Part shown: piece after piece, positions 1 through 52,600 of the stretch | Numbering within the stretch: the stretch's first letter is position 1 | How the letters are laid out: every line of letters begins with the position of its first letter | Source of the DNA: Escherichia phage vB_EcoS_HdH2 | DNA: 64,000 nt | Sequence record: NC_048748.1 | Reading direction: 5' to 3' (one strand) | Notes under the pieces: model-generated | Database searches by the model: none | What the model saw: the letters and a program-made list of their open reading frames with translations, nothing else | What the model was told of the DNA's origin: nothing | Made by a program: the position numbers and the translations under genes

Positions 1-624
1 GTTGAACCTAATCTTGCACACTTGCGTATTGGTGAATGGTATAAGAAATATCCGGGTCAAGTAGTAAATTTGACTACTAACGTTGATGACCTTATTGAGC
101 GTGCTGGTGTTCCGCATAGTGACATTTTGCATATTCATGGATATTTAAAAGAGGTTGTTGTAGCTGACAGCTACAATAGTAGCAATAAACGAGTTATTGA
201 TGTTGGGTATAGCTCTATTGACCCAGATGATTATAAATGGGCTAAACCTAATGTAATCTTCTTTGGTGAGCATGCTCCAGCGTACGCAGAAATGTACAAT
301 ATTTTTGATGGTATTACCAGTCAAGATATGATCGTTGTGGTTGGTTGCTCTAACCAAGTAATTAACTTCTACTGGGAATTATTTCCTGTTCTTAATTTGA
401 CTGCTGCCAAATTAATGGTAGTTAACTACTATGATAGTGCCCTAGCGACAGAGCCAGGCTATCAAGGTATGACTCGTAGTGAGATGTACCAGCTGGAAGA
501 ACGCGGTATCCCTTACTGGAGTAAAGGGGCTGTAGATGCCTTCAGTGACCCTGATTTTATTGCTCGTGTAGAAGCTCATCTAGAGGGTAGACCTTATATG
601 CCGGGGAAACAAATATGTCCATAA
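1..624 (+). CDS. Sir2-like (sirtuin-family) protein, 5'-partial; reading frame is open to the window start
   Basis: Sirtuin-like motifs in order: PNLAH, TTNVDDLIERAG (cf. TQNIDxLxxxAG), HIHGY (HG), VIFFGE (FGE), VVVGCSNQV (GTSLxV-like). No CxxC zinc-ribbon cysteines between HG and FGE. Confidence 0.5.
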   Translation, partial: VEPNLAHLRIGEWYKKYPGQVVNLTTNVDDLIERAGVPHSDILHIHGYLKEVVVADSYNSSNKRVIDVGYSSIDPDDYKWAKPNVIFFGEHAPAYAEMYNIFDGITSQDMIVVVGCSNQVINFYWELFPVLNLTAAKLMVVNYYDSALATEPGYQGMTRSEMYQLEERGIPYWSKGAVDAFSDPDFIARVEAHLEGRPYMPGKQICP

Positions 625-797
625 TTAAATCTGTGTATACACACCCTGATGATATATTTGTATGGGCGGACGGTAGTTGGTGCTATCGCTGTGAGTTGTG
701 GGAAATGGACTATAAATCCGATGACTATGGTGTTATATATGTGGATACGGTTGAGTATGATACGTTCTTAGAAAGGAACAAAAATGGAAATAAGTAA
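615..797 (+). CDS. hypothetical small protein
   Basis: 60-aa ORF overlapping the stops/starts of both neighbours; no recognisable motif. Confidence 0.35.
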   Translation: MSIIKSVYTHPDDIFVWADGSWCYRCELWEMDYKSDDYGVIYVDTVEYDTFLERNKNGNK

Positions 798-1290
798 TAC
801 TCCAATTATTTTTCTAGACATTGATGGGGTGCTCAATTCGAGCATCTCCCACCATCATGCACCTGATGATGAAAAGATTTTCTTTGGAAGTGACTGGGTT
901 TTCAAACCGCTTCTCAAGGCTTTTCAGGACTTTATTCGTCCTTCTCCGATAATGATTGTTGGAGTATCCTCATGGTTCTCTGTCAGGAATGAGATGGAGA
1001 ACGTTCAGATTATGACCGGATTAGGTCTTATCGATCGTTTTCTTGGTACAACGGATTTTACTGGTGGTGGGCTATCTAGGGGTAATTCTGTTCTTCGCTT
1101 CGTTGAAAAGCATAAGCTCAAACATTGGTGTGTGCTGGATGATGCCGGTGCTATGATGTATCAGTATCCAACGGTTATAGTCAATGGTAGAACAGGAATA
1201 AATCTTCAGGATTTAAAAGCTGTTAGCTATATGCTAGAATTTAGCCCAGATCTTGAAATGTGTAAATCCTTACAACAATTTAAGGTGTAA
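784..1290 (+). CDS. HAD-superfamily hydrolase-like protein
   Basis: N-terminal IIFLDIDGVLNS (HAD motif I, DxDG) and later VLDDAG; 168 aa. Confidence 0.5.
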   Translation: MEISNTPIIFLDIDGVLNSSISHHHAPDDEKIFFGSDWVFKPLLKAFQDFIRPSPIMIVGVSSWFSVRNEMENVQIMTGLGLIDRFLGTTDFTGGGLSRGNSVLRFVEKHKLKHWCVLDDAGAMMYQYPTVIVNGRTGINLQDLKAVSYMLEFSPDLEMCKSLQQFKV

Positions 1291-1292
1291 AT

Positions 1293-1721
1293 ATGTTCAA
1301 TAATGTATTCTCTAAAGAAGCTAACCCAATTTTGGTTAACTTTTGGCGTACTCTCCCGGCTAGCCTGTATAATGAGGCTATTAACTCCTTGAAAATATGG
1401 TGTGAGAATAACGAAATCTCCTTTGCTTTTAAAGATGATATTGATGAGGCCCCCTGTATTGGTTTAATTGTTCAGGTAGAGGAGGGTCTTGAAGAAATTG
1501 TCGGCTGGAAAGAGTTAGATGAAATGGGCTTAGTTTTTGCGTTAAACTATAAGCTGTTTATGCCTGCTAAGCATCGCCTCGTTGTTAACTATAAAACCAG
1601 TGAATCTCCTGGCTTTCAAGTTAATGAACATTACGGTTGGTCTTACTCACCGGAAGAAGTAAATGAGGGGATTCAGAAACTTCGACGTTTCGGGTATATG
1701 ATCCCAGGTTTAACCGCCTAA
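1293..1721 (+). CDS. hypothetical protein, tandem paralogue A
   Basis: 142 aa; shares PCIG, EL(D/S)xMGL(V/I)(F/V)ALN(Y/F) and G(Y/I)(M/Y)(I/V)PGL blocks with the next ORF. Confidence 0.65.
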   Translation: MFNNVFSKEANPILVNFWRTLPASLYNEAINSLKIWCENNEISFAFKDDIDEAPCIGLIVQVEEGLEEIVGWKELDEMGLVFALNYKLFMPAKHRLVVNYKTSESPGFQVNEHYGWSYSPEEVNEGIQKLRRFGYMIPGLTA

Positions 1722-1730
1722 GGGGGCACA

Positions 1731-2123
1731 ATGGAACAAGTATATTGGCGTCAGATTGATCCTAGTTTGGTGAAGCGTGCGGAGAAGCTGCTACAACGTT
1801 GGTTGGTGGTAAGACAAGCCTCCTTCACTTTTCCGGAGCAGCAAACGGATGATCCATGCATTGGCGTTTTCCTGTCTGGATATGCCGGGGAGTGGGAATT
1901 GGATTGGAATGAATTGTCTGCTATGGGCTTGATTGTTGCCCTAAACTTCTCTATATTCCATCCACGTGGTTTGGCCATATGTCGTGTGCCTGATGACGGT
2001 TGTTCGCCCCATCTTTTACAGGTGGAAGATGATATTTGGGAGTACACTCCAGGTATTCTCAAAGAAGCTAAAGAACAATTAAATCGTGTTGGGATCTATG
2101 TTCCGGGGCTAAATGATGAATGA
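1731..2123 (+). CDS. hypothetical protein, tandem paralogue B
   Basis: 130 aa; paralogous to 1293..1721; followed by hairpin plus T-run. Confidence 0.65.
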   Translation: MEQVYWRQIDPSLVKRAEKLLQRWLVVRQASFTFPEQQTDDPCIGVFLSGYAGEWELDWNELSAMGLIVALNFSIFHPRGLAICRVPDDGCSPHLLQVEDDIWEYTPGILKEAKEQLNRVGIYVPGLNDE

Positions 2124-2146
2124 GTTTTATTAGCTGAACTCTGATT

Positions 2147-2171
2147 ACCGAGTCATTTTGGCTCGGTTTTA
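2147..2171 (+). terminator. intrinsic terminator
   Basis: accgag/ctcggt stem followed by tttt, directly after stop of 1731..2123. Confidence 0.55.
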
Positions 2172-2214
2172 TCCGTACTCAAGACCAGTGATAGCATCTT
2201 TGGAAAAAATTTAC

Positions 2215-8058: not shown

Positions 8059-8247
8059 ATGAAAGTAACACTTCCAAAAATTCAAGCAAAGCTAAATCTA
8101 GTATCGAATGCTAGAAATAACTATCTAGATAACTTTGGTGGAATCAACGATAAAGCGTACAAAGATGCGTGGTTGAAAGAAGCGCAAGAGTTAGCCGATC
8201 TCATTGCTCAGTATAATAAAGAACTACGGGTAGAAATGAATGACTAA
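8059..8247 (+). CDS. hypothetical small protein
   Basis: ATG 8059 after AAGAGGA; ORF track begins at an upstream TTG. Confidence 0.5.
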   Translation: MKVTLPKIQAKLNLVSNARNNYLDNFGGINDKAYKDAWLKEAQELADLIAQYNKELRVEMND

Positions 8248-9211
8248 TGTAAAAGACTTTATTAAACGCTGTCAAGAAGCATATTATCAAGGCATGTCTT
8301 TAATCTCTGATGAAGAATATGATCGCCTGGTAAAACGCTTCCCATTAGAAGAAGAGATTGGGCCTAAGGGTGATATTCCACATCTGTACCGTATGTATTC
8401 TTTACAGAAAGTTTATTATAATCGTGGAGATAAACCTCCGTTTAACCCATTAGGTCAGGTAGAAACTGATAAGTTAGATGGTTGTGCGATTTCTCTGCTA
8501 TATATTAATGGCGAATTTGTTCAAGCACTAACTCGTGGTAATGGTATTCTAGGAAATGATGTCACAAGCAACGTAAGATTGCTGAACATCCCCAAAAAGA
8601 TTTCCCAAAAAGTACCTACTCAAATCACTGGTGAAGTTCTAATTACAAAAGAAGTAGAAAATAAACGTAACTTTGCCTCTGGTGCTATTAACCTCAAAGA
8701 TAGCGATGATTTCGTACAACGTATCGGGGAAGGTGGTTTAATCTTCGTTGCATATGGTATCCAGTGTTCTGCTGAATCTGTAGGTATTACAGAAGCGTAT
8801 TTAAAAGATATGCTTTGGCTGGAGAATGAGAACTTCTTAACAGTTGTTAATGTGCGTTCCTTCTTTAAATGGATTCCTACTGATGGTAAAGTTGTTCGTA
8901 TTAATGACAACAACAAATTCTTCCGAGAAGGCTGGACTAATAAATTCCCTCGTGGAGCATTCGCTATTAAAGAGGATGAAGAAGGCGAGATTACAACTCT
9001 TACTAAAGTTGAGTGGCAGGTAGGGGCTTCTGGTAAAGTAACTCCAGTTGGTTATTTCGAACCGGTAATTATTGATGATGCTACGATTGTTAAAGCGACT
9101 CTCAATAACGTTGATTATATTAACTCTCTCGATCTAGAGATCGGTTGCCAGATTCGAGTGATTCGTGCTGGTGGTGTAATCCCGTGCATAGTAGAGCGAG
9201 TATACGATTAA
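8240..9211 (+). CDS. ligA: NAD-dependent DNA ligase, subunit A (adenylation/OB part)
   Basis: KxDG adenylation motif in ETDKLDGCAISLLY; 323 aa, equivalent to the N-terminal two-thirds of bacterial LigA. Confidence 0.85.
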   Translation: MTNVKDFIKRCQEAYYQGMSLISDEEYDRLVKRFPLEEEIGPKGDIPHLYRMYSLQKVYYNRGDKPPFNPLGQVETDKLDGCAISLLYINGEFVQALTRGNGILGNDVTSNVRLLNIPKKISQKVPTQITGEVLITKEVENKRNFASGAINLKDSDDFVQRIGEGGLIFVAYGIQCSAESVGITEAYLKDMLWLENENFLTVVNVRSFFKWIPTDGKVVRINDNNKFFREGWTNKFPRGAFAIKEDEEGEITTLTKVEWQVGASGKVTPVGYFEPVIIDDATIVKATLNNVDYINSLDLEIGCQIRVIRAGGVIPCIVERVYD

Positions 9212-9383: not shown

Positions 9384-9413
9384 ATTTATATAAATTGATA
9401 AGGAAGAAATTTG

Positions 9414-10190
9414 ATGAAAATCGAAATTCCAACACAATGTCCCTCTTGTGGTTCTAAGCTAGATCTTGTCAACGGACAATTATTCTGTCGTAATAAGTCC
9501 AACTGTCCAGCGCAATCAAGTAAGTTAATTGAGAACTTCTGTACAAAAATGAAGTTAAAGGGCTTTGGCCCGAAAACTATTGAGAAGCTGGAGCTGACGA
9601 AGATTTCAGAACTATTTTACCTAACCGAAGAAGATTTGGTTAGAGCCGTGGGTAGCAAGGTTGCCGCTAAGTTAATTAGCGAATTAAATACTAAAGTTCG
9701 CGGAGACATTGACTTTGGTTCAGTTCTCGGTTCTTTAGGAATCCCTCTAATTGGAGAGGTTGCAGCAAAGAAATTATCCCAAAATTGCACTAGCTTTCAA
9801 GATGTGAGAGCTGACGGCAAGGCTGGAGAAAACTATAAAGCCTGGCTAAATTCCCCACAAGGCAAGGATGTTATCGAATTACCGTGGAAATTCTCAAATG
9901 GTATTAAGGGTGCTAAAGCTGAGGTCATCACTGATGGTCTAGTAGCCCAACCAAACGGAATAACGGTATGTATTACCGGATCTTTGCAAGATTTTGCAAA
10001 TCGAACGGATGCAACAAACTATTTAGAAGGTCTAGGATATACGGTTAAGAAATCCGTTACTAAAGACGTCAAATACCTAATCTGTGAGGATGAATCGAAG
10101 CGTTCTTCCTCATCTTATAAGAAAGCCGAAACGAATGGGATAGAAATCCTGTCGATTAAAGAACTATTGGAGAAAAATAATAATGTCTAA
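9414..10190 (+). CDS. ligB: NAD-dependent DNA ligase, subunit B (Zn-finger/HhH/BRCT part)
   Basis: Cys4 zinc finger CPSCGSKL...CRNKSNCPAQ typical of LigA C-terminal half; 259 aa. Confidence 0.85.
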   Translation: MKIEIPTQCPSCGSKLDLVNGQLFCRNKSNCPAQSSKLIENFCTKMKLKGFGPKTIEKLELTKISELFYLTEEDLVRAVGSKVAAKLISELNTKVRGDIDFGSVLGSLGIPLIGEVAAKKLSQNCTSFQDVRADGKAGENYKAWLNSPQGKDVIELPWKFSNGIKGAKAEVITDGLVAQPNGITVCITGSLQDFANRTDATNYLEGLGYTVKKSVTKDVKYLICEDESKRSSSSYKKAETNGIEILSIKELLEKNNNV

Positions 10191-41454: not shown

Positions 41455-42861
41455 TTAACCACCAGCACTAACTGTGATAGTTTTAGTACCTTCTACACCA
41501 GAACCATCTTTAGCTACAGCCTTCACAGTAACTGCACCAGTTCTAGAAGCATCGGCTGTTAATAGTCCAGATTCTGCATCAATCGTAGCTGCATTACCAC
41601 TAGAAATAGACCAAGTTACAGCCTTATTAGTAGCTTCTGGAGGTGTTACCTCAACAGACATCTGTAAAGTATTACTATTTGTTACAGAAACAGCCTCACC
41701 TGCCGATTTAACTGTAATGGATTTAACGGGAACTGGAGGAGTTTTAGCACCATCCCCCGTAGCAATCAGATTAGCCACAGTAGTTTTTGTATACTTGTTA
41801 GAAAATCCAAGATAACCTTCGTCACCAGTATCCAAATCTGTAGGAATAGCTTTAAACTCTACTGAAGTACCAAGTACATCATCAGTCTCAATAGTAGGGA
41901 TGTTAACGTGCGCCTGTTTAGCAACTAACACAGCTGCCGGTCGCTCATCATCGTATTCACCACCCAAAATAAGTGCAATTTCAAAACGGTTAACTACCTT
42001 AAGGGTTTTGACAAGATCTTTGTACAGTTCCATGGAACCAAGAGACTTATCATTAAGGTATGCTGTCAAAGAACCTGTTAACTCAAACGCACCAGTAAAT
42101 GAACCGATAGGAATATTTACACGTGACATAATATTCGGGGTTAGGTACGTGATGTTGTTATTAATGGTAAAAGTACCACCAGTAATAGGAATATCATATG
42201 CCTTATCAGAATCCATATCCTTAATTTTTAGGATAGTTAACTTGTTCTTAATGTAAGAACTCTGAATAGTCATATAGGTTTCATCATCAATACCTAATGC
42301 ATCTGGATCAAATGGTTGGCTATCTAACGGGATGAGCTGATTACCATTACCAGACCAGGTTACACGACCAATATCCTCAATATCAACGTTAACTTCTGCC
42401 TGGTTGATCTGGCAAGAGTCAATGTAACTCCACGCATTGTCAGTCAGAATGTAGATATGCAGCATAGCTAACTCATGGTAAGAATTATCTTTGAAGTTAA
42501 CCATGAAGTTAGTAGCATTATTATGTGCTCCAGTATCTCCGTCAAGATTAATAGCTTTACCACTAGAAAGTGCATGCCATAACATATAGTCAGGAACAAT
42601 TTGTTTGCTAGTAGTTTTATCCTTGTATGGCAGGATATATGTGGAGAAGCTCCACTCAGCCGCGTTCAAGGAATCGTTAAAACGTTTAGAACCACGAGTA
42701 GGACGCGGACCAGCTTCGTTAACAGTAATATCTGTTGAGTTACTGTCCTGACCCCAAGAAATATCATCCTGAACTAGAATCTCTTGCGTGTTGGTCTTAT
42801 CGTGACCAGTCTTAACCGTAGACACGAAGATTCGAGTATTACGTAATAGTTGTAAAGACAT
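41455..42861 (-). CDS. major tail tube protein (T5 pb6-like) with C-terminal Ig-like domain
   Basis: 468 aa; C-terminal Big_2-like segment ITVKSAGEAVSVTNSNTLQMSVEVTPPEATNKAVTWSISS...VTVKAVAKDGSG. Confidence 0.8.
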   Translation of the reverse strand: MSLQLLRNTRIFVSTVKTGHDKTNTQEILVQDDISWGQDSNSTDITVNEAGPRPTRGSKRFNDSLNAAEWSFSTYILPYKDKTTSKQIVPDYMLWHALSSGKAINLDGDTGAHNNATNFMVNFKDNSYHELAMLHIYILTDNAWSYIDSCQINQAEVNVDIEDIGRVTWSGNGNQLIPLDSQPFDPDALGIDDETYMTIQSSYIKNKLTILKIKDMDSDKAYDIPITGGTFTINNNITYLTPNIMSRVNIPIGSFTGAFELTGSLTAYLNDKSLGSMELYKDLVKTLKVVNRFEIALILGGEYDDERPAAVLVAKQAHVNIPTIETDDVLGTSVEFKAIPTDLDTGDEGYLGFSNKYTKTTVANLIATGDGAKTPPVPVKSITVKSAGEAVSVTNSNTLQMSVEVTPPEATNKAVTWSISSGNAATIDAESGLLTADASRTGAVTVKAVAKDGSGVEGTKTITVSAGG

Positions 42862-49003: not shown

Positions 49004-50320
49004 TTATTTACCACGGGAAATAGAATAAATTCCATAGCGGAGCGCATCACAAAGGTGAGAGTTAGCATCATGACGTGGTTTTTCACGTGATAATTTCTCT
49101 TCGCCTTCTTGGAAGTCCCACTTATAGTTCTGCAATGCATGAATTAAGGAGGAACATGAGGCATCCACAATAATTTTCCCTTGCTGAAATAACGCTTGCA
49201 AACATGCTAGGCCATCTAGGACAGATTTTTTAGCTGGAGCTGATGCAATTTCGTGCTCATAAGCTAAGTCCTGGCGGAACTGAGCGGCGGCAGAGTCAAC
49301 AAAAATACGATCAACTTTATAACGATTTATACAATGCTGAATATAAGCAGCATGCTGGGCTGTAGTTTTTTCCGCCTGCTGGTACTCTTCTAATACATAG
49401 TAAGTATCCGTATCGTAATGATATTTAATAGTAAGAACTGCTGTAGGATCACGATAACCAACGTCAATACCAAGCAATGTTTCGAATGCTTCATCATCTT
49501 TAAAGAAGTGACGCATACCTTTGAGGTCTTTAACATGATCGATAGCATTAAAGGTATCGAAGATCTGACCTTCGAATACAGAGAAGTCAGCCTCGTATTC
49601 TTGGCGGAAGTAGTTTTTACTAACAGTACGACGTGCTTCCTCAATATCATTCAGGTCAGCACGTGGATTATCACGATATGTACCATGAATAGATACCCAG
49701 TTAGGTAATGTATCATCAAATCCATAGGCATAAAACTCTTTAAACCAGTTACCACCACGAGGAGTAGAGATAAATAGAGCCTTAGAATTAGGCTTATCTA
49801 GAGTAGGACGCAGCTGAACTCTAAAGGCATCACCACCTACATCGGAAATTGCCGCCTCGTCAAAAATGATAAAGTCATATGAACGTCCAACTGCGGAGTC
49901 AGCCTGAGCAGCGGAAGCTAGTTTAAACAGAGAACCATTAGCTAACTCAATTTCCTTATCTTTAGCGTTCTCACGTTCAGTTTGTAGGCCATATTTTTTA
50001 ATAAGACCACGAATCTGAGACCATCCGATGTTGGCCAGTGAATAGTTAGGAGCAACTACTAACACCTTCACATTAGGTTCCAGCAATTTTAGGAACCCAA
50101 GAGTATATGCGATGAAGGATTTACCTACACGGCGTGATACACACGCCGTTACAAAACGATGTCTAGGGTCCTCTAGAGCATTAATAATCGCTATTTGAGG
50201 ACCATTAGGTGTAATACCTTCTTGTGCTAGTATTCCCGAAACAGGTAGACGAAAGAAACGTTTATCTATTCCGAAATCAATAACATCTACTGTATTAACG
50301 TAAGGTCTTGATACTTCCAT
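49004..50320 (-). CDS. terminase large subunit
   Basis: 438 aa; Walker A CVSRRVGKSF, Walker B YDFIIFDEAA. Confidence 0.9.
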   Translation of the reverse strand: MEVSRPYVNTVDVIDFGIDKRFFRLPVSGILAQEGITPNGPQIAIINALEDPRHRFVTACVSRRVGKSFIAYTLGFLKLLEPNVKVLVVAPNYSLANIGWSQIRGLIKKYGLQTERENAKDKEIELANGSLFKLASAAQADSAVGRSYDFIIFDEAAISDVGGDAFRVQLRPTLDKPNSKALFISTPRGGNWFKEFYAYGFDDTLPNWVSIHGTYRDNPRADLNDIEEARRTVSKNYFRQEYEADFSVFEGQIFDTFNAIDHVKDLKGMRHFFKDDEAFETLLGIDVGYRDPTAVLTIKYHYDTDTYYVLEEYQQAEKTTAQHAAYIQHCINRYKVDRIFVDSAAAQFRQDLAYEHEIASAPAKKSVLDGLACLQALFQQGKIIVDASCSSLIHALQNYKWDFQEGEEKLSREKPRHDANSHLCDALRYGIYSISRGK

Positions 50321-50802
50321 TACTTCTTACCTCCAGTAGCTAGGGAAGTAATTAAGTCCATGTAGTTTTGATCCCCAGCTCCAGCAATAATATTATTCTG
50401 GATGTTGGTCTGATTGGCTGGAGTACGGGCTGCTGCCTTCACTTTCTCCAGTTCTACCATCATTTTCATTTCTTCCATCTTCATCTTGTGTGCCTTCCAG
50501 AGAATGTCCATAATATCCTGGTCAGAACCCATGCCGGTTTCTTCTAGTTCCTCCAGCTTACGCTTGATAACTTCATCCAGAACACCAAATAAACGATCCC
50601 TATTACGGAAACCACTCTCCATAAAAATATCGTTTAAGTAGTTTTTAACTTCACTACGATTCATAATATCTCGGAAAGCAATTTCAGACATTCCAAGACT
50701 ACGTGCCGCAGAAGGCACATCGCTACCACACTGTAAATAAGCTTCAATCACATCCATCCCTTCAGGGGACATAAGATCTGGTACTAATACATCATTTGCC
50801 AT
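50320..50802 (-). CDS. terminase small subunit (by position)
   Basis: 160 aa immediately upstream of large subunit; AGGAGG SD. Confidence 0.5.
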
Positions 50803-50812
50803 ATTTCCTCCT

Positions 50813-52600
50813 TTAGGTAAGGCGTTGAACTGTTACTCTTAATCTCGGTAGGAAAATAGCTGCAGCCTCATCAGCGTGAATAATTACGCCCAATTCAGCA
50901 TTACCATTTCCTAGATTTTTAATAGTATAAATATATCCGTTTCTTCTAAATGTTAACTCATCAGGTCTACTTGCCCAAGTTTGAGTATAACTGTATGCAG
51001 TAGTGGAGTGATAAGGGACTAAGTATCCAGGAGGTAAGGTTAATATTTGATGGAATATTCCATCACCTTCCGTGTAACTATGCTGTCTTCTTCCTTGTAC
51101 TTGCCAAGCAACACCACCATATGTGCGTATAGCTCCTCCTGCGGTATTAATATTCCCCATGATAACTTCAGTAGTTAATATTACTGTTGCGTTAGCATTA
51201 GGCAATCCTAATCCTATGGTGGCCAAAGCTCTATAGTAGTTACCTGCTCCAGGATATGTTGGAGTTATATCATCGCCAACGTAAGTGCTAGCAACATTAT
51301 TAGGAAATAGTCTTAAGGGTACAGTACTAGGACTCCACACAGCTCCATGCTCATTACCTATAGTGTTATTACTTGAGTTTACGTACCATTGTTTACCCGC
51401 TCCGAATTTGTAAATACTAATTTGAGACTTAGCCCCTCCATAATCTACGGGAGACCATAAAGATCCATTACTAGATCCTACAATTTCACAGCGCGCAGTA
51501 GTATCCCCGAAGGCTCCAGTGTACGCTGCGTTATTTCCAATGTACTCCATATCTGGCCTATAGCCTAAGTTACCAAAAGCATTTTGGTTGATAAACTTAT
51601 ATCCAGTATTTGGTAAACTAACCCCTTTTATAGTAAAATTAGATGGAGTTATAAGTATATCTGACCCAGTAAATGGATTACCGGATACGCCCATATTACC
51701 ATTAGAGTACCTTAGATTAAGTACATACCAAATAACTTTGGTAGGTGTAATATTATAACCATCCTGCACATATACTTTCTTAGCGGCCTGTGCCGCTAAA
51801 TTAGATGTTGAACCTTTGCATATGTAAACCTTATCAGGGTAAGTAGGAGATTGATACAATAAGTTAACATTAGCCGGTACTGTGCCCTTTTTACCTACAT
51901 AACCTCGTATATTAGAGTTACAAACGTAAAACCAATTATGCCCTCTATGGGCGGCCCCTATAGGAGCTTGCCAATTAGGGTGCCAGTAGTCAGCATTACC
52001 ACCATCTATAGGTACTGTAGACGCTCCTGCTGGAAATCCTGCTAAAGTCCATGCCCTACCTATAGCCTCACCAGCATATGCTCCTCCCGGTCTATATAAA
52101 TTAAACCCAGAGGCTTGAGATATGGTACCACCTGTACCCTGCCTAGCAATTGATTCTTCATGCCCTAAACCAGAGTTATAAATATAGGTGCCATGTGCTA
52201 AACTATTACCGGATGCAAAAGCTGACGTAAGACCTACTTCTGCACCTGCCCTACCAATAGGCGGATCTTCAAAAAATGCAGTAAATTGACCAACTTGAGA
52301 TTGAGTACCATTAAGAAAAGCTCTGTGAGTACCATTTATCTCAATAGCAGTTAGTATAACTCTACCTGGGTCGTTGGATTTAATATTTATTATGTCAGAG
52401 GGCATTTGACATACAAAAAACCCATTCCCGGCATTACCTAATGCAGCCTCATAAGTACCATCAACTAGGACAAATGGCATATCACTATGAAAAATACTAT
52501 TGGCATTTGGACTATAGTGACGATTAATGTCACCACCAGATTCAGTATTTAAAGATAGTACGGTCTTACCATCGCTATATTTTCCAGCGAAAAAACCCAT
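50813..52600 (-). CDS. receptor-binding tail protein (T5 pb5/oad-type)
   Basis: 595 aa; divergently adjacent to a lipoprotein gene as in T5 oad-llp; Gly/Asn/Tyr-rich. Confidence 0.6.

Follow-up and report, generated by a model that had tools for sequence, protein, structure and literature searches.

At the beginning of the window, the whole stretch of 64,000 nucleotides analyzed from Escherichia phage vB_EcoS_HdH2 (NC_048748.1), lies an accessory operon of T5-like phages composed of a sirtuin gene, a 60-aa open reading frame (ORF), a HAD_SAK_2 phosphatase gene and two DUF7415 genes. By sequence and predicted fold, the sirtuin is a canonical class III sirtuin of the CobB/SIRT5 type, and it lacks the zinc-ligand cysteines; the best explanation we can offer, tentatively, is that it works with the HAD phosphatase as an NAD-dependent RNA-repair module that shields phage translation. 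The gene pair was already known and annotated, and had been described computationally beforehand. The label "Sir2" is found on the gene in hundreds of T5-like genomes, the sirtuin family occurs in about 1000 phage records, and Iyer, Burroughs, Anantharaman & Aravind (2022, Viruses 14:1977; PMC9503650) reported a sirtuin with a Swiss-army-knife HAD (SAK-HAD) in T5-like phages (Escherichia phage SP15, neighbourhood type 3) and predicted the pair to be an NAD-dependent RNA-repair system with KptA-like action. The window holds an instance of their type 3 system, namely a viral-clade sirtuin linked to a SAK-HAD gene, sharing with it both the gene pair and the phage group. It is an ordinary member of a known family whose biochemical role is a predicted one only, and a full-text literature search found no experimental (biochemical or genetic) study of a T5-type sirtuin. 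New here are the coupling of cysteine loss to a Gln-to-Thr change, the linkage of sirtuin and HAD genes in two gene orders, the cutting of both genes by deletions in phage DT57C, and the location of HAD homologues upstream of NARP1-like genes; in the available portion of the article by Iyer et al. (PMC9503650), no mention was found of lost zinc ligands, the Gln-to-Thr change, a deletion remnant or HAD-NARP1 adjacency.

All genes of the operon lie on the plus strand. The sirtuin gene occupies positions 1..624 (frame 1), where a stop-free translation of 207 residues is followed by a stop codon; its 5' end is beyond the window edge. The 60-aa ORF (615..797; phrog_5116, E=6e-30) shares 10 nt with the sirtuin gene and 14 nt with the HAD gene (784..1290, 168 aa), which suggests translational coupling with both neighbours. 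The first-pass annotation had placed a HAD-like hydrolase next to the sirtuin: the hydrolase call and the linkage are borne out, but the two genes do not strictly adjoin, as this ORF stands between them. Tightly packed 3' of the HAD gene is the first of two DUF7415 paralogues (1293..1721; PF24187, E=5.2e-36; phrog_2502), probably on a shared transcript, and the second (1731..2123; PF24187, E=9.4e-31; phrog_2502) is the final gene of the co-directional block. A terminator-like hairpin at 2146..2172, with a 9-bp stem followed by UUUUAU, probably marks the end of the transcription unit; the RNA fold of 2124-2175 reaches -14.2 kcal/mol (z=-3.59), and none of 200 shuffled sequences was equally stable, although a consensus terminator scan did not pick up the hairpin. 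The 60-aa ORF matches no Pfam family. Salmonella phage S133 and contig L005 carry homologues (57% and 34% identity, respectively) directly 3' of their sirtuin genes. The possibility that the ORF product provides a zinc ribbon in trans was rejected: it has a single C-x-x-C (CYRC), the second Cys of which is Phe in S133 and L005, and unrelated ORFs take its place in L014 and L016.

The phage is T5-like (Tequintavirus), and the sirtuin fragment covers the 3'-terminal 207 codons for a Sir2-family protein of 274 aa. Relatives with 96% DNA identity carry the intact gene (825 nt, 274 aa), and their N-terminus, GAGLSVESGVRAFR, is likewise sirtuin-like, so that the missing end sought by the first-pass annotation could be read from them. 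The window fragment matches PF02146 (SIR2) with E=5.4e-13 over profile positions 61-178 of 180, scoring 49.7 bits against a gathering cut-off of 24, and the full-length relative matches it with E=6.9e-25 and 88.5 bits over positions 1-178 of 180; the sirtuin also matches phrog_2162 (E=1.4e-121). In the translation of the window, TTNVDD (Asn at nt 79-81, Asp at nt 85-87), HIHGY (catalytic His at nt 136-138, Gly at nt 139-141), FFGE (nt 259-270, with FGE at nt 262-270) and GCS (about nt 343-351) can be read. H113, G114, N94 and D96 are invariant among 54 homologues, as are V152, F154, F155, E157 and the NAD-binding motifs. Since neither the catalytic residues (His113, Asn94, Asp96) nor the NAD-binding motifs vary, the enzyme is probably active. 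Moreover, relatives supply the class III Y-x-x-R motif, whose codons precede the window: its Y58 and R61 do not vary within the phage clade and align with the Tyr and Arg of CobB.

The predicted structure (pLDDT 90.2) agrees with this placement. The best 50 structural matches in the PDB (Foldseek) are all canonical sirtuins, headed by E. coli CobB (1s5p; TM 0.85 on the target), Af1-Sir2 and SIRT5, and the same is true of the best 60 PDB sequence matches (1s5p, E=1.4e-17). Among profiles, the protein matches PF02146 and CobB-type NCBIfam models only, but it stays below the CobB equivalog cut-offs (NF040867 and NF001753; 90 vs 320 bits and 100 vs 243 bits). With CobB, Af1-Sir2 and SIRT5 it shares GAGxS, N-x-D, HG, FGE, Y-x-x-R and a small module of equal length; it differs from CobB-type enzymes in lacking the zinc-ligand cysteines, in having Thr for the Gln of TQNxD and GCS for GTS, in a C-terminal extension of about 50 residues, and in a genomic context of phosphatase and RNA-repair genes. 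The first-pass annotation had set the protein apart from deacetylases and likened it to the NAD-cleaving SIR2 domains found in defence systems; this likeness was not supported. No defence SIR2 appears among the best 50 Foldseek matches, no PADLOC SIR2 model (ThsA, DSR, SIR2-HerA) matches the full-length sirtuin at E up to 1, and a PADLOC scan of the full-length sirtuin, the HAD, the 60-aa ORF and one DUF7415 protein gave nothing relevant. Proteins of the defence type (SIR2_2: ThsA, DSR1/2, SIR2-HerA, FAM118) have in common with the phage sirtuin the use of NAD+ and the absence of four-Cys zinc binding; however, in them the zinc-binding module is missing altogether and the sheet is seven-stranded (PMC12700824), whereas the phage protein retains the module, confidently modelled, together with the FGE loop and Y-x-x-R, and it is neither fused to nor paired with a sensor domain. 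The full-length protein thus clusters with canonical deacylases, contrary to that annotation, although a normal zinc site is indeed absent, as it had anticipated.

The observation from which that comparison had started, a partial ORF with sirtuin motifs and no CxxC pairs between HG and FGE, was confirmed. The 43 residues separating these motifs contain no Cys, and there are just two in the entire window fragment, one within VGCSN and one within the C-terminal KQICP. A motif search in 120 homologues (identity about 50% or higher) located both motifs in 84 and left the other 36 unscored; those 84 have 0-2 Cys in the segment and no C-x-x-C. By this comparison of sequences, the entire clade shares the lack of cysteines, which is no oddity of a single protein, and the four-cysteine zinc site of canonical sirtuins is absent from the window protein and from its clade alike. 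The segment nonetheless keeps its normal length (41-60 residues, mostly 44-47, among homologues), and the structure prediction folds it into a three-stranded sheet (strands 114-122, 131-134 and 147-152), with a mean pLDDT of 82-97 per 10-residue block over residues 111-150; according to the model, a normal-length beta module is retained and only the cysteines are gone. Loss of the cysteines tracks a change of the TQNxD Gln to Thr in the phage clade: more distant relatives that keep the Gln have at least three Cys in the segment in 79 of 93 cases, the remaining 14 being without these cysteines. This Gln has a role in the NAD-ribose pocket. Cysteine loss together with the Gln-to-Thr change beside the catalytic Asn marks, as judged from the alignments, a functionally shifted clade, and in this family nature has run a clean experiment on a canonical sirtuin fold without zinc. 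SirTM and Sir2La were considered as zinc-less sirtuins for comparison and dropped, as the SirTM paper describes a zinc-coordinating domain and the Sir2La preprint is silent on the matter.

The phosphatase matches PF18143 (HAD_SAK_2) with E=4e-20 and 73 bits (cut-off 27.5) over profile positions 1-138 of 139, and HAD motifs I-IV are all invariant among homologues: the catalytic D12/D14 (DxD, nt 817-825), S62/S63, R99 and D119/D120. An invariant GGGxxRG loop is distinctive of this HAD. A cap domain is absent both after motif I and between motifs II and III, making it a C0 type, and MDP-1, Scp1 and UBLCP1 are among its best structural matches. No solved structure matches it at the sequence level; compared with C0 HADs (MDP-1, Scp1/Fcp1 and the T4 polynucleotide kinase-phosphatase domain), identity is only 13-17%. 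PF18143 is a family defined from RNA-repair proteins, and cap-less HADs tend toward large substrates, a small-molecule phosphatase of this type being unusual.

Diverged Demerecviridae-like contigs, whose HAD is only 39-44% identical, show two gene orders, and sirtuin and HAD genes remain adjacent in both. In phage DT57C, deletions cut both genes and left one chimeric 90-aa remnant. The linkage data come largely from related phages, and part of the linkage may reflect inherited synteny rather than selection. Outside the T5-like phages, orthologous sirtuins of the V5/Mydo type (58-62% identical) are located inside complete RNA end-healing and sealing cassettes of Vequintavirinae, a neighbourhood of viral sirtuins already reported (PMC9503650). 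The cassette of phage ime contains a Metallophos phosphoesterase, an AAA_33 kinase, a T4-type RNA ligase 1, cREC and the sirtuin, and that of Klebsiella phage KPP-1 an RNA ligase, cREC, the AAA_33 kinase, a 74-aa ORF and the sirtuin.

In the RNA-repair scheme that we tentatively favour, the sirtuin would use NAD+ in ordinary sirtuin chemistry: nicotinamide would leave, a substrate oxygen would attack C1'' of the ADP-ribose, and the conserved His would then activate the ribose 2''-OH. The nucleophile would be a phosphate on damaged RNA instead of acyl-lysine, namely the 2'-phosphate left after opening of a cleaved tRNA or mRNA end. KptA/Tpt1 transfers ADP-ribose from NAD+ to an RNA 2'-phosphate, which is followed by attack of the 2''-OH, and the sirtuin would carry out the same reaction with a different fold. 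The HAD would then strip a phosphate, either from the RNA end or from the by-product ADP-ribose-1''-phosphate, which could arise from ADP-ribose 1'',2''-cyclic phosphate, perhaps opened by the phage cREC protein. Such a module would guard the phage translation system against host RNA-cutting defences and would be dispensable where these are absent. What the data show is the gene content, the fold, the conserved motifs, the linkage and the truncation of both genes in DT57C, while the substrate and the order of steps are what we infer; the comparison with KptA/Tpt1 is a proposed functional analogy only (PMC9503650), since the phage sirtuin has an unrelated fold and is no member of that family.

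Several observations point to RNA repair as the function of the pair: the sirtuin orthologues in Vequintavirinae cassettes, the origin of PF18143 in RNA-repair proteins and the MDP-1/Scp1/UBLCP1-like, cap-less HAD, the two-order adjacency with the cutting of both genes in DT57C, and catalytic and NAD-binding residues that stay invariant while cysteines and Gln are lost, in addition to the KptA-like proposal of Iyer et al. 2022 (PMC9503650). Moreover, a T5-like relative encodes a cREC protein (PF20274, E=3.7e-15) and 25 annotated tRNA genes. On the other hand, a look for RNA ligase, kinase and NARP1 genes in the T5-like genome yielded only this cREC gene and calcineurin-like phosphoesterases. 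No RNA ligase or polynucleotide kinase was found by tblastn with Vequintavirinae queries in the window and in positions 1-50000 of the relative (50,001-52,344 being outside the search), nor in the relative's annotation, so that sealing would need a host enzyme. Also weighing against RNA repair are the mostly related phages behind the linkage, the NAD-rebuilding (NARP1-like) genes that form the one further context in which the HAD family recurs, and the retention of all lysine-deacylase features except the zinc ligands, among them the FGE loop and Y-x-x-R of class III; structure alone therefore demands no new substrate.

The last point leads to an explanation that is possible, if on balance unlikely: the gene could be a phage copy of a CobB-type lysine deacylase (deacetylase/desuccinylase) that resets host or phage protein acylation, its zinc site having become a packed zinc-free sheet, with the HAD as a neighbour that has a separate job. 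Consistent with this are the nearest relatives in sequence and fold (E. coli CobB, Af1-Sir2, SIRT5), a PF02146 match spanning the full profile, the invariance of V152, F154, F155, E157, H113, N94, D96 and Y58-x-x-R61, a beta module confidently predicted without cysteines, and the 14 of 93 Gln-keeping relatives that likewise do without them. However, a deacylase leaves unexplained the two-order linkage to a phosphatase, the cutting of both genes in DT57C and the orthologues within RNA ligase/kinase/cREC cassettes; the Gln-to-Thr change is located in the NAD-ribose pocket, and the CobB equivalog scores are far under their cut-offs. Furthermore, canonical sirtuins reportedly need the zinc module for deacetylation (PMC12700824).

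A further explanation, which we regard as rather improbable, starts from the HAD. The pair would act on soluble NAD/ADP-ribose metabolites to manage the NAD pool under NAD-targeting defences; the HAD would be an ADP-ribose-phosphate phosphatase clearing ADPR-1''-phosphate or products derived from ADPR cyclic phosphate, and the sirtuin would make or use such a compound, e.g., by ADP-ribose transfer to a phosphate acceptor. In three Vequintavirinae-like genomes or contigs, HAD homologues (36-43% identical) lie directly upstream of Prs-like and 595-aa NAPRTase-like genes, and in one of these phages, Serratia phage ChuuTotoro, no sirtuin gene occurs in the 79 of 147 kb examined, the syntenic spot included. 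In KPP-1, NARP1-like genes are located about 5 kb from the sirtuin. The pair of Prs-like and NAPRTase-like genes reproduces the NARP1 architecture, which consists of Adps and Namat, annotated as Prs and Nampt, and ADPR cyclic phosphate is a side product of NARP1 (bioRxiv 10.1101/2024.02.11.579819). Less favourable is the identity of the Prs-like protein to Felixounavirus homologues, only about 40%; phage Bas63, the source of the characterised Adps, probably belongs to this group. Some NARP1 operons (NARP1-AP) add Adpp, a Macro-fold ADPR-1''-phosphate phosphatase that counters aRES (Osterman et al. 2026, bioRxiv 10.64898/2026.01.28.702374). The HAD_SAK_2 homologues of ChuuTotoro-like phages resemble Adpp in being an extra phosphatase gene beside Adps-Namat-type operons, but they have a HAD instead of a Macro fold and would be a non-homologous counterpart. 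The T5-like phage, in contrast, is without Adps or Namat: tblastn with the ChuuTotoro Prs-like and NAPRTase-like queries found no homologues in the window or in the relative's positions 1-50000, and released ADPR could therefore not be rebuilt by the NARP1 route. In addition, the sequence does not reveal the substrate specificity of the HAD, and a small-molecule role would be out of the ordinary for a cap-less enzyme. What the first-pass annotation had proposed about NAD-depletion defences finds only an indirect hint in these HAD homologues beside NARP1-like genes of other phages, which also suggest ADP-ribose-1''-phosphate as a HAD substrate to ask about.

There is also a bolder idea, to which we give a low probability: in the zinc-less, Thr-for-Gln clade, acyl-lysine may have given way as acceptor to the oxygen of a phosphate, either an RNA 2'-phosphate or even inorganic phosphate, and HAD_SAK_2 may be an unrecognised ADP-ribose-phosphate phosphatase, a HAD-fold counterpart of Adpp that phages attach to sirtuin or NARP1 operons. 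If so, Tpt1 would have its first equivalent of the sirtuin fold in this protein, and the HAD would be a second, independent answer to ADPR-1''-phosphate-producing defences (aRES). HAD activity on ADP-ribose-1''-phosphate would tie the module into the NAD-centred arms race between phages and bacteria.

That the sirtuin is a deregulated NADase, depleting the NAD+ of the host to shut it off or disturbing NAD-based defence signalling, is very improbable: any sirtuin active site could in principle hydrolyze NAD+, and the missing zinc ligands give a superficial likeness to defence SIR2 domains, but no such domain or model was matched (best 50 structural matches; PADLOC), the zinc module and substrate loop are kept, a split NAD-dependent DNA ligase is encoded by the phage itself 8-10 kb downstream, which makes a bulk NADase unlikely, and the related T5-like phage Bas30 (TrudiRoth) carries NARP3, which rebuilds NAD+ (PMC13464706), so that NAD depletion would hurt the phage. 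Of the NAD+/nucleotide-manipulating module first proposed for the locus, a role of the sirtuin-HAD pair in NAD/ADP-ribose chemistry is likely, and the host-shutoff part is disfavoured. NARP3 (PnuC and NadR-like) was also tried as a neighbour and rejected: it does not adjoin the sirtuin-HAD block in the region of Epseptimavirus S133 examined, and it is not annotated in the inspected portions of the Tequintavirus relative.

With both genes cut by deletions, DT57C represents a ready-made natural deletion control for the module. As a note in the DT57C record calls the Sir2-like gene of T5 defective, T5 may be a second natural deletion phage.

The first 2400 bases of the window matched 445 phage records in a nucleotide search, almost all of them Salmonella and Escherichia T5-like phages (Demerecviridae, Tequintavirus/Epseptimavirus), with 96.5% identity to Escherichia phage vB_EcoD-Elw. 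This region opens with a sirtuin gene cut by the window edge, the 3' part of which (1-624, plus strand; 207 residues) matches PF02146 with E=5.4e-13. The complete version in relatives (825 nt, 274 aa) lies downstream of nrdD and upstream of the origin-binding helicase gene, and is annotated as "Sir2" or "NAD-dependent deacetylase"; the full-length protein of a relative matches the whole PF02146 profile (E=6.9e-25). Translation of the window gave the sirtuin motifs TTNVDD, HIHGY, FFGE and GCS; the stretch from HG (nt 136-141) to FGE (nt 262-270) is free of cysteine. The same segment holds 0-2 cysteines and no C-x-x-C in 84 of 120 homologues, namely those in which both motifs could be located and which the count covers. 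These data confirm the absence of CxxC pairs noticed in the first-pass annotation, and the HAD phosphatase reported nearby was verified as well (784-1290, plus strand): PF18143, HAD_SAK_2, is matched over its entire length with E=4e-20, and the four HAD motifs are invariant among homologues. The two genes are indeed linked, but they are not strictly adjacent, as a 60-aa ORF from the ORF list (615-797, plus strand) intervenes and overlaps both.

We then examined the resemblance to NAD-cleaving SIR2 domains of defence systems that had been proposed from the missing CxxC pairs. The NCBIfam matches of the sirtuin were CobB-type deacylase models only, all far below cut-offs, and no defence SIR2 model was matched in a PADLOC scan. 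Among PDB sequences, E. coli CobB scored best (1s5p, E=1.4e-17), ahead of archaeal Sir2 proteins, SIRT5, Sir2Tm, SIRT3 and SIRT2. An AlphaFold2 model built from a 54-sequence alignment was confident (pLDDT 90.2, pTM 0.88), and its comparison with the PDB by Foldseek placed CobB first (TM 0.85 on target), then Af1-Sir2 and SIRT5, with no defence SIR2 among the best 50 structural matches. In addition, the model has three strands (114-122, 131-134 and 147-152) exactly at the zinc-holding site of canonical sirtuins. Whereas defence-type (SIR2_2) sirtuins are described as being without the entire zinc module (PMC12700824), the phage protein keeps the module and only the ligands are gone; together with the PADLOC and fold results, this argues against the proposed likeness. 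Catalytic and NAD-binding residues are invariant in the 54-sequence alignment, and so is the class III Y-x-x-R motif (Y58, R61) in phage sirtuins.

Of 1.84 billion representative proteins searched, 2988 matched the sirtuin, and the best 150 of these were aligned. All of the 16 nearest are zinc-less; in all but one of them the Gln of TQNxD is replaced by Thr (Ser in one case). Among the best 150, Thr occurs with at most two cysteines in 33 sirtuins and with at least three in 9, while Gln occurs with at least three in 79 and with at most two in 14; these sequences are related to one another, and the counts do not represent independent events. Within this alignment, cysteine loss and the Gln-to-Thr change clearly go together. 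The TQNxD Gln is part of the lining of the nicotinamide-ribose pocket, so this double change may mark a functional shift.

The HAD belongs to a small family of 22 homologues, each a stand-alone protein of 117-184 aa. Three diverged Demerecviridae-like contigs, in which the HAD protein is only 39-44% identical, show an inverted gene order (HAD, small ORF, sirtuin, small ORF), with the block again lying between phoH/nrdD and the origin-binding gene. In phage DT57C, most of both genes is deleted, leaving a 90-aa chimera that joins approximately sirtuin residues 171-220 to HAD residues 128-168. That the genes stay together in two orders, and that both are truncated at a single locus in DT57C, fits a functional pair which is not needed for growth on the DT57C host. 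RefSeq and PHROG-based annotation names the HAD gene "Sir2 (NAD-dependent deacetylase)" in the window (784-1290) and at loci L001 (5784-6290) and L017 (2480-2752). This mislabelling appears to be caused by phrog_18062 (92 positions), which matches the C-terminal half of HAD (6e-58) and sirtuin residues 169-216 (2e-6); such a profile would be explained by a chimeric remnant like that of DT57C, which is likewise made of these two parts. The label is an annotation artefact, spreading by transfer.

Sirtuin homologues were found in 1009 phage records by tblastn. In Vequintavirus phage ime, the neighbours are a calcineurin-like phosphoesterase, an AAA_33 kinase, a T4-type RNA ligase 1 and the cyclic-phosphate processing protein cREC, in a cassette near a tRNA cluster, while Mydovirus KPP-1 has the order RNA ligase, cREC, kinase, 74-aa ORF, sirtuin, DNA ligase. 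Iyer et al. 2022 (PMC9503650) describe both neighbourhoods, list a "sirtuin plus Swiss-army-knife HAD" type with T5-like SP15 as its representative, and suggest a KptA-like removal of RNA 2'-phosphates by the sirtuin. As a prediction, the finding is thus already in print, and the pair is an ordinary case of a phage gene family that has been described before and has a predicted function; a full-text literature search found no experimental work on the T5-type sirtuin. Klebsiella phage KPP-1 (L004, 1-1130 and 4054-6777) also carries NARP1-like genes, annotated Nampt and Prs, which point away from the RNA ligase/cREC/kinase/sirtuin cluster; at a distance of about 5 kb, they bring NAD rebuilding near to a consumer of NAD within one early region. 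Outside the window, vB_EcoD-Elw (L010) has a stand-alone cREC receiver gene (42503-42817; PF20274, E=3.7e-15) at a distance of about 14 kb from its sirtuin gene. Its genome further holds two calcineurin-like phosphoesterases and 25 annotated tRNA genes, but no recognisable RNA ligase.

Based on the orthologue contexts, the phosphatase linkage and the cREC gene of the T5-like relative, we tentatively favour a role of the pair on RNA 2'-phosphates or ADP-ribose-phosphate. Against this model stands, above all, the failure to detect an RNA ligase or kinase in the T5-like genome, either by tblastn of the window and of relative positions 1-50000 or in the annotation. A plain CobB-like deacylase is a serious, if less likely, rival, since all deacylase features except the zinc ligands are intact. 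Action of the pair on soluble NAD/ADPR metabolites ranks third and is less likely again. The reading as an NADase or host-shutoff factor is very improbable, as the window encodes its own split NAD-dependent DNA ligase (adenylation and OB domains in one ORF, HhH and BRCT domains in another; 8240-9211 and 9411-10190), so that phage DNA ligation needs NAD+, and NARP3, a module for rebuilding NAD, is present in a related T5-like phage (PMC13464706). Overall, the first-pass observation was real and its interpretation partly right.

In Vequintavirinae-like phages, namely Serratia phage ChuuTotoro and two similar metagenomic contigs, a HAD_SAK_2 homologue lies immediately upstream of Prs-like and 595-aa NAPRTase-like genes (L006 5001-8217, L007 5001-8569, L013 4001-7519). 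This arrangement is the NARP1 architecture, the enzymes of which, Adps and Namat, bear exactly these misleading annotations (bioRxiv 10.1101/2024.02.11.579819). For the Prs-like protein of ChuuTotoro, 1489 homologues were found in phages, those of Felixounavirus at ~40% identity among them. According to bioRxiv 10.64898/2026.01.28.702374, some NARP1 operons have an extra Macro-fold ADPR-1''-phosphate phosphatase, Adpp, which defeats aRES defence; by analogy, HAD may be its HAD-fold counterpart, a lead rather than a result. In ChuuTotoro, a check of 79 kb revealed no sirtuin, and tblastn detected neither Adps nor Namat in the T5-like genome (window and relative positions 1-50000).

Downstream of the HAD gene, two tandem DUF7415 paralogues (1293-1721 and 1731-2123, plus strand, by profile match) each match the 53-residue profile in two stretches and are conserved across Tequintavirus and Epseptimavirus. 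They are probably independent of the sirtuin-HAD pair, as DT57C keeps them despite its deletion. In a diverged T5-like contig (L005, 6790-8250) they are replaced by ~1.4 kb without a called gene, with nothing but short ORFs on either strand. Between these paralogues and the 929-aa origin-binding helicase gene, 617 bp (2124-2740) hold no convincing ORF; this stretch is AT-rich, with TTGCAT...TATAAT-type promoter-like sequences seen by eye and not listed by a simple promoter scan. A hairpin with a U-run at ~2146-2172, downstream of the DUF7415 genes, looks like a terminator.
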